NCBI GenBank assembly: GCA_038109055.1
Contig: JAYNIM010000006.1
Location: 38,113 to 102,112, forward strand
DNA: 64,000 nucleotides
Source of the DNA: a bacterium
Lineage (GTDB): Bacteria > Margulisbacteria > Marinamargulisbacteria > GCA-2716485 > JAYNIM01
Reading direction: 5' to 3'
This document shows positions 63,260-64,000 of the stretch, piece by piece. A program made the position numbers and the translations under genes. Each line of letters starts with the position of its first letter. Within the stretch, counting starts at the first letter, position 1. Under the pieces are notes generated by a model. The model saw only the letters and a list, made by a program, of their open reading frames with translations, searched no databases and was not told where the DNA came from.

Positions 63260-63694
63260 ATGAATCGATTCATATCAAAAAAAATCATATCGTCAATTTC
63301 ATTCCTATTACTAGGTTTGCTATTGCTTAATGTCCCCTTAAATCAAGCTGTCCTTTGCATGGAATCTGATGGGCATTCAAATATCGAATATAGTGTTGTT
63401 GGGTCTTGTGAAAAATCCCTTTGTGAGCAATCTCAGTCACAAAAATCACCTGATGCACATGTAGATGATTGCGAAGATTGTACGGATATTTCATTGTCTC
63501 AGTCAGCGGTTGCAAGCAGAGAAGATTTTCAAAATGTAGCCCCTGATTTGCTATTTCTTCAAGTTGATTGGGTTTTGGATACCTTATCTATTGATCTAAC
63601 AGAACCTAAACAAGAAATTTACCCACTTTTTTCGAAGTTTTCTCATGATAATTCACCTCTGGCACATCGCCAGACTATTGTCCTCCTAATTTAA
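63260..63694 (+). CDS. Exported Cys/His-rich protein upstream of a CzcC/TolC gene (candidate metal-sensing leader ORF)
   Basis: Signal-like N-terminus, VLCMESDGH, C..C pairs (CEKSLC, HVDDCEDCTD), C-terminal HRQTIVLLI. Confidence 0.7.
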   Translation: MNRFISKKIISSISFLLLGLLLLNVPLNQAVLCMESDGHSNIEYSVVGSCEKSLCEQSQSQKSPDAHVDDCEDCTDISLSQSAVASREDFQNVAPDLLFLQVDWVLDTLSIDLTEPKQEIYPLFSKFSHDNSPLAHRQTIVLLI

Positions 63695-63696
63695 AC

Positions 63697-63768
63697 CGCT
63701 TCACCTGATCAATTTCATTGTTGATACGGGTTGTTAGTAGCACCCAAAATACAACAGGAGGTGAAGCG
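63697..63768 (+). promoter_or_regulatory. Stem-loop sequestering the SD of the downstream gene
   Basis: CGCTTCACCT (63697-63706) is the perfect reverse complement of AGGTGAAGCG (63759-63768), which overlaps AGGAGGTG. Confidence 0.75.
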
Positions 63769-63773
63769 TAACA

Positions 63774-64000
63774 ATGAAAAAATCAATTTATTTTTATACT
63801 GTAGTGGGATTAGTCACAATTTTTTCTCATGTGGTATTAGCTGAAACCACACCCAATTCTGACTTCAACAAAGTTTTATCAAATCAAACCGTTATCGAAC
63901 AGGTACTGACAAATAATTTAGAACTTAAAGCTTTGAAATCAGAGATGCTATCGAAAGAAGCATTGCTTCGTCAGGCAAAGGCGTGGAAAAACCCCGAATT
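63774..64000 (+). CDS. TolC/CzcC-family outer membrane efflux protein, 5' part (runs off the window)
   Basis: MKKSIYFY...VLA signal peptide; VIEQVLTNNLELKA...LRQAKAWKNPE matches the CzcC-type N-terminal helix. Confidence 0.7.
   Translation, partial: MKKSIYFYTVVGLVTIFSHVVLAETTPNSDFNKVLSNQTVIEQVLTNNLELKALKSEMLSKEALLRQAKAWKNPE

Follow-up and report, generated by a model that had tools for sequence, protein, structure and literature searches.

At the end of the window, by which we mean the whole 64,000-nt stretch of DNA analysed, a small open reading frame (hereafter called the leader) precedes a czcC-like gene, with a gap of 79 nt between them (Table 1). The 144-aa frame stopping at 63694 that the original prediction had described was reproduced at its coordinates. 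Its downstream neighbour is represented by 75 aa only, because the window ends at the contig's end; this fragment has no Pfam match of its own, and none of the remaining operon genes were found in the same assembly. That it belongs to a CzcC/TolC gene, as had been claimed, could be established from near-identical relatives. In one of them (L137), a full OEP/TolC gene matching PF02321 is followed by a gene for a His-rich HlyD protein.

Table 1. Features of the leader locus (positions in the window)
Feature	Position	Strand	Remarks
-10-like box TATGAT	63246..63251	+	8 nt 5' of the leader ATG; consensus match
Leader ORF	63260..63694	+	144 aa, ends HRQTIVLLI-TAA; family without annotation (Pfam/NCBIfam matches 0/93)
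Putative signal peptide/anchor (residues 1-30)	63260..63349	+	Basic start, hydrophobic run, predicted helix 2-23
Putative metal-sensor module, residues 31-79	63350..63496	+	VLCxExDGHxxxE...C50...C71xxC74xD76
Linker	63497..63655	+	Fixed length, free sequence; low pLDDT
Tail PLAHRQTIVLLI-TAA	63656..63694	+	Candidate termination-arrest peptide
Anti-SD arm CGCTTCACCT	63697-63706	+	+3 to +12 after the leader stop; paired in 92.9% of cells across 7 close relatives
Inner helices of multibranch loop	63708..63745	+	Hairpin 63708-63725; GGG/CCC 63728-63745
SD	63756-63764	+	SD of the czcC-like gene, including the 8 letters AGGAGGTG (63756-63763)
3' stem arm AGGTGAAGCG	63759-63768	+	Pairs with 63697-63706
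czcC-like TolC/OEP gene, start	63774..64000	+	Full-length in L137 and L138; both score closer to CzcC than to CusC

On its own the TATGAT box upstream of the leader is weak evidence, because the region holds 7 consensus matches against 4.5 expected. A TGn-TAnnnT box is nevertheless found 7-10 nt 5' of the leader ATG in all five close relatives shown, and TAnnnT occurs at that position before 24 of 85 leaders versus 5 of 72 downstream starts, leader starts having been chosen by rule. Taken together, these boxes suggest that the transcripts of some family members are leaderless, and the transcript in the window is likely to be leaderless or near-leaderless. Metatranscriptome contigs overlap parts of the leader and of czcC; strand, level and single-transcript status are outside such data. 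Farther upstream, where the sequence differs between close relatives, a coiled-coil ORF without Pfam match (62679-63203, minus strand) overlaps a tRNA-Gln gene (62698-62771, plus strand). This ORF resembles the C-terminus of large serine recombinases, and the leader cassette may therefore sit in an island remnant.

Family members and their gene neighbourhoods

We collected leader homologues by scanning GTDB genomes with the N-terminal motif alone, since the tail must not be selected for, and found at least 120 loci. Of the 120 matches listed, 112 passed a hydrophobicity cut directly upstream of the motif, and 88 combined a hydrophobic N-terminus with a closed frame. After addition of one borderline case, four of these 89 closed matches were left out (L055 and L118 without CxD, L066 interrupted, L103 frameshifted), leaving 85. 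A second set of 52 further members was gathered with a profile that includes the tail. The matches listed come from about 15 groups at the level of phyla, including Planctomycetota, Poribacteria, Pseudomonadota, Ignavibacteria, Calditrichota, Desulfobacterota, Zixibacteria and Nitrospirota, with members in cultured Methylomonas, Magnetospirillum and Melioribacter; kinship among loci means that our counts overstate independence. In three groups that were sampled, a profile matched 14/121, 10/201 and 44/201 genomes, and an earlier profile matched 5/146 genomes of the phylum of the window.

Word-index protein searches retrieved close relatives only (10 and 15 matches). Nine of the 10 close homologues end in RQ[TN]IV[LM][LI]I, and one is truncated. 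More distant members from the same phylum end in INSTILII, LQSIIFLI and KDSVVLLI, each time with an OEP gene next to them. None of the 93 aligned members matched Pfam (E 0.01) or NCBIfam, no structure was matched at E 0.001 in a fold search with the AlphaFold model (pLDDT 67, pTM 0.37), and the ESM Atlas returned mostly unnamed clusters, with DUF8199 at rank 18. A topic search of the literature, in which subscription journals are mostly outside coverage, yielded nothing on the family or its tail. Sequence comparison places the ORF in a widespread, unnamed family whose small, signal-bearing genes precede those of CzcCBA-type pumps. The leader is real and conserved, and most likely regulatory.

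In the first set, among the matches listed, the next gene codes for an OEP protein in 66 of 76 cases, for HlyD in three and for a P-type ATPase in one, with six lacking a match; in the second set, the figures are 44 of 51 for OEP, two for HlyD and five without match. Most family members are the first gene of a TolC-HlyD-RND operon. Of the 20 full-length RND subunits examined, every one is closer to Cupriavidus metallidurans CzcA than to Escherichia coli CusA, two of them only slightly, and all 20 lack the CusA Met triad. CzcA-like subunits without this triad point to pumps of the CzcA type, i.e. to divalent ions and away from copper.

A few loci are organized differently. In L169, L174, L191, L200, L046 and L022, the leaders precede small unannotated genes for lipoprotein-like or exported proteins, with no TolC gene; those of L169, L174 and L191 resemble each other. 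These products are candidate new metal-handling proteins. L066 has an intact sensor module followed by an in-frame ABC-ATPase-like fragment that replaces the tail, with a heavy-metal P-type ATPase gene downstream. L003 (G031, 1221-1632, minus strand) is a frameshifted member with an intact tail and SD-pairing stretch, whose downstream gene is a short remnant.

Putative sensor module, linker and stop-anchored tail

In a 93-row alignment of the matches listed, C33, G38, E43, C74 and D76 are invariant, and only the first three are part of the search pattern. C74 and D76 are present in 93/93 sequences, C50 in 82/93 and C71 in 71/93, and the full CxxCxD motif is found in 64/93. AlphaFold predicts strands at residues 30-34, 40-44 and 75-78 and a confident signal helix, and it places the tail outside the predicted fold, with low confidence. 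The Cys/His/Asp/Glu module probably binds metal.

The linker has a constant length. From CxD to the C-terminus, the 93 sequences have 55-72 residues (interquartile range 64-68, SD 3.1), with 68 in the window, and the same distance is 59-75 residues in 51 of the 52 further members, which were found with the tail-including profile. In a force-profile study on LepB, periplasmic folding was reportedly felt at the ribosome about 70 residues from the peptidyl-transferase centre (PTC), and about 50 extended residues sufficed to span ribosome and translocon (bioRxiv 10.1101/2021.02.06.430026; compare PMC7513700). The agreement with the LepB distance is suggestive, not diagnostic, because about 50 residues already span both structures.

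A signal, a fixed linker and a C-terminal motif are also the layout of a force-sensitive monitor, and the leader could in principle report on secretion or disulfide formation, like SecM or VemP, rather than on metal. The two invariant Cys residues and the tendency of C50 and C71 to co-occur (both in 94 of 138 sequences, neither in 12, one only in 32) would agree with such a role. We regard it as quite improbable, given that the neighbours are almost exclusively metal RND genes and that the module carries His and acidic residues, with a median of three His.

The tail ends directly at the stop codon, with the family consensus LR[TS]x[VI]LL[IV]-stop. Leu at -3 is found in 114 of 123 sequences and in 81 of the 85 matches listed; the conservation anticipated for the tail was thus recovered in homologues collected without using it. 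Its information lies in codon positions 1 and 2, with little in position 3, synonymous codons including both Ser boxes are used, and all three stops occur (TGA 58, TAG 39 and TAA 26 among 123). Hence, the tail appears to be constrained mainly as protein, although a bias for pyrimidine-ending codons at -5 to -3 indicates that part of its conservation is an overlapping RNA constraint. The tail shares with termination-arrest peptides a motif that is in fixed register with the stop and kept as protein. The idea that the LL codons are kept only as an anti-SD sequence was rejected: their pairing probability is 0 in the window, and the tail persists where the arm follows the stop.

At its two final positions the tail is highly variable (LI, RC, LV, RN, QV), with Arg or Gln at -2 in 30/123, and the pairs that recur there (LI, RC, RN, QV, LN) may represent alternative solutions for the peptidyl-transferase centre. 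When the 1860 ORFs of the own genome were scored for the tail, the leader, itself part of the profile, reached 23.6 and the best other ORF 4.7. TAG stops are commoner in the leaders (39/123) than in the downstream genes (17/99).

Predicted pairing between the stop zone and the downstream SD

The 10-bp pairing of the two arms was confirmed where the original prediction had placed it, with outer-stem pair probabilities of 0.86-1.0 over three context lengths. The fold of 63692-63780 has an energy of -25.8 kcal/mol (z -4.46), equalled by none of 200 shuffles. The stem was said to hide most of the SD; its extent was corrected to five of the eight letters of AGGAGGTG. As for the inner pairings, GGG/CCC held with a probability of 0.98, and the TGTTG/CAACA complementarity exists without being the dominant form (p about 0.34, versus about 0.65 for the local hairpin 63708-63725). 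Covariation was not significant among the seven close relatives (70/500 shuffles). Stem changes in these relatives are mostly G-U-preserving, with one double change in addition, and in L139 three of the 10 pairs are broken.

Forcing the leader end and the 10 nt past the stop to stay unpaired lowers the predicted cost of opening the SD in the window from 6.6 to 3.6 kcal/mol. When a ribosome footprint is modelled, an edge at +9 to +12 relative to the stop lowers the opening cost from 15.8 to 10.0-11.7, while an edge at +6 or earlier leaves it at 14.7-15.8. As only the former relieves the stem, the layout suits a ribosome standing at the stop codon rather than one several codons before it.

Among family members, the gap between leader stop and next start varies from 40 to 335 nt. 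The constant spacing expected between stop and hairpin therefore applies to the arm, not to the downstream start. Predicted SD partners cluster at 0 to +9 after the stop and, less often, at -15 to -6 in the last codons. In 73 of 103 loci (49/63 and 24/40 in the two sets), the SD is predicted to pair with the zone from -17 to +11 around the leader stop, as compared with 25 of 254 control gaps (21/205 own-genome gaps, 0/16 other locus gaps and 4/33 GC-rich gaps), the control genes being crude ORF calls not matched for operon-leader status; the other 30 loci do not show such pairing. These counts leave out 9 of 72 loci of the first set with gaps over 200 nt and 12 of 52 of the second, and of the 246 own-genome controls, the 205 whose gaps do not exceed 160 nt were used. 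Eight loci without a usable downstream start were also left out, and four starts were reset by hand. Relief of at least 3 kcal/mol was calculated for 46/103 family loci versus 4/254 controls. With the stop zone held open, SD opening in the first set falls from 7.4 to 3.6 kcal/mol, which equals control levels.

The pairing is also specific to each locus. Cognate stop-zone/RBS pairing reaches -13.0, versus -10.0 +/- 0.3 for permuted combinations. In 56 of 72 cases, pairing with the own RBS is also stronger than the median for 12 neighbours of matched GC content, the pair in the window being the best of the 72; own-genome controls displayed no cognate-pairing effect. Thus, as in CutF, an SD-shielding stem is predicted under the footprint of a ribosome at the leader's end. 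In some Poribacteria loci (e.g., L025, L045, L064 and L073), gaps of 200-335 nt separate the leader from OEP genes with apparent TTG starts, and an extra RNA element may be present there.

Arrest is not required by the RNA layout alone, since every ribosome that terminates there would open the arm for a short time. The stem position fits equally well with constitutive coupling, in which ordinary termination melts the stem, metal control resides elsewhere and the tail serves a periplasmic protein as a C-terminal tag for degradation or sorting. Hydrophobic C-termini are signals for Tsp/DegP-type proteases. CutF is rapidly degraded, according to the accessible text of PMC9973294. Coupling of this kind leaves the fixed sensor-to-stop length unexplained, and a degradation tag is hard to reconcile with Arg or Gln at -2 in almost a quarter of the tails and with the absence of the tail from every other ORF of the own genome. 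We consider this combination rather unlikely, albeit the most serious competitor to a pause at termination.

Alternatively, the pause may be real and its output mainly transcriptional, with the ribosome at the stop masking a Rho utilisation site, in the manner of TnaC or CruR. The last 60 coding nt have a C/G ratio of about 2 and the sequence directly past the stop one of 3.6, versus about 1 in controls, only 9 of 246 control gene ends match the window leader in C-richness, and Rho is encoded in the genome; CruR uses a C>G bubble, as described in the available text of PMC9426467. However, the skew at fourfold third positions is slight (1.19 vs 1.12), which indicates that the C skew mostly follows Pro/Ser/Leu/Thr content. 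In addition, the C peak is the anti-SD itself, and the cognate RBS pairing would remain unexplained. We find it unlikely that Rho masking is the main output, although it could coexist with a termination pause that acts on translation.

Proposed mechanism and relation to known systems

We consider it probable that a metal-gated pause at termination of the leader controls translation of the downstream gene in a CutF-like manner. As far as sequence comparison goes, the conserved neighbour, the sensor motif, the linker of fixed length, the stop-anchored tail and the position of the anti-SD arm support this view; stalling and metal sensing are what we infer from them. The computational expectations attached to the original reading of a leader-controlled SD stem were borne out, with a conserved tail and an arm fixed to the stop. 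The operon would be transcribed from a plain sigma-70-type promoter, and the nascent chain would be threaded through SecYEG during translation. The 64-68-residue linker would place the Cys/His/Asp/Glu module fully in the periplasm as the stop codon enters the A site, and the tail would then fill the exit tunnel and slow peptide release. Without metal, the module would fold, probably with disulfides, and pull, the ribosome would leave and the stem would re-form. With Zn/Cd/Co/Ni-type ions bound, the pull would be lost, the ribosome would dwell and czcC would be translated. For the direction of these metal steps, we rely on the CutF model and on efflux-pump logic. A dwelling ribosome may additionally mask a C-rich Rho site.

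In its full form, the proposal is that of a force-sensitive, exported leader whose proline-free LRTxxLLI tail blocks termination whichever stop codon is used. Through a 67-residue ruler across the translocon, the leader would read periplasmic Zn/Cd/Co/Ni, and it would switch on CzcCBA in at least 15 phylum-level groups. We put this proposal forward tentatively, as a serious possibility. The known metal-sensing leaders have proline motifs and sense copper. If termination arrest takes place, the tail represents a new class of arrest peptide; confirmation of the model would provide a new tunnel-binding sequence, join termination arrest to trans-membrane force sensing and explain post-transcriptional metal control of czcCBA operons.

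In the accessible parts of the CutF reports, CutF of Rhodobacter capsulatus is likewise a small exported Cys-containing leader acting in cis on a downstream SD-hiding stem, but it stalls in elongation at a PPP motif, in a manner tied to EF-P, and senses Cu (PMC9973294; bioRxiv 10.1101/2025.02.05.636593). CutF-like proteins commonly have OEP/CzcC neighbours and four Cys residues in a similar order (available text of PMC9973294). In contrast with CutF, the new family has no conserved Pro in a tail that is anchored to the stop, a spacer of about 68-70 residues and CzcA-type pumps. Of the CutF-like filters given in the accessible text of PMC9973294, the ORF in the window passes those for size (<150 aa), export signal (by hydropathy) and a same-strand neighbour within 1000 nt, and it lacks the PP motif in the last 15 residues, which only 16/123 family members possess. 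A few of these PP-bearing members could be within the CutF-like list of PMC9973294. As published screens filtered on PP or RAPP, they would mostly have missed the family.

CruR/DUF2946 (PF11162) of Bordetella, as described in the available part of PMC9426467, shares a uORF with CxxC, an export signal, conserved sensor-to-tail spacing and a C-rich region near the end. It differs by its RAPP motif, a 45-residue spacing, a dispensable signal, a Rho-based output and the fact that metal turns an importer off. Arrest at RAPP has been demonstrated for it (available text of PMC12992588). The window leader indeed lacks RAPP, as initially noted, and RAPP, RGPP or RAGP occurs in the last 25 residues of 3/123 members. 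We rejected membership in DUF2946/CruR: PF11162 matches 0/93 members, RAPP is missing and the D-to-end distance is 55-72 residues, not about 45. TnaC, PepNL, NanCL, SpeFL and MsrDL also have a motif in register with the stop codon, but they are short cytoplasmic peptides, and the accessible text of PMC11890864 describes neither an exported sensor nor a linker across the membrane for any of them.

CzcI of C. metallidurans (NF045614) is, like the leaders, a small exported Cys/His protein directly ahead of czcC, and it is described without a PP motif in the available part of PMC9973294. It ends in RAPDRPQWQRLA, with 49 residues from CxxC to the end, and is reported to be a trans-acting quencher of CzcCBA (accessible text of PMC10127602), unlike what we propose here. 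This position and similar outline raise the question of whether the leaders are CzcI-like periplasmic accessory proteins acting in trans on the pump, the stem being incidental. Membership in the CzcI families was rejected, as NF045614 and NF045615 match 0/93 members though they match CzcI itself, and the hhalign probability is 18%. Since the placement of the stem is far from incidental, such a trans-acting role looks very improbable. In the czcI-czcC gap of C. metallidurans (L141:15510-15570), TCGGCGAGAC, judged by eye, can pair in two ways, one involving a segment over the czcI stop and the other a segment further downstream. Because of these alternative pairings and of the RAPDRPQWQRLA ending, czcI may itself be a cis-acting leader.
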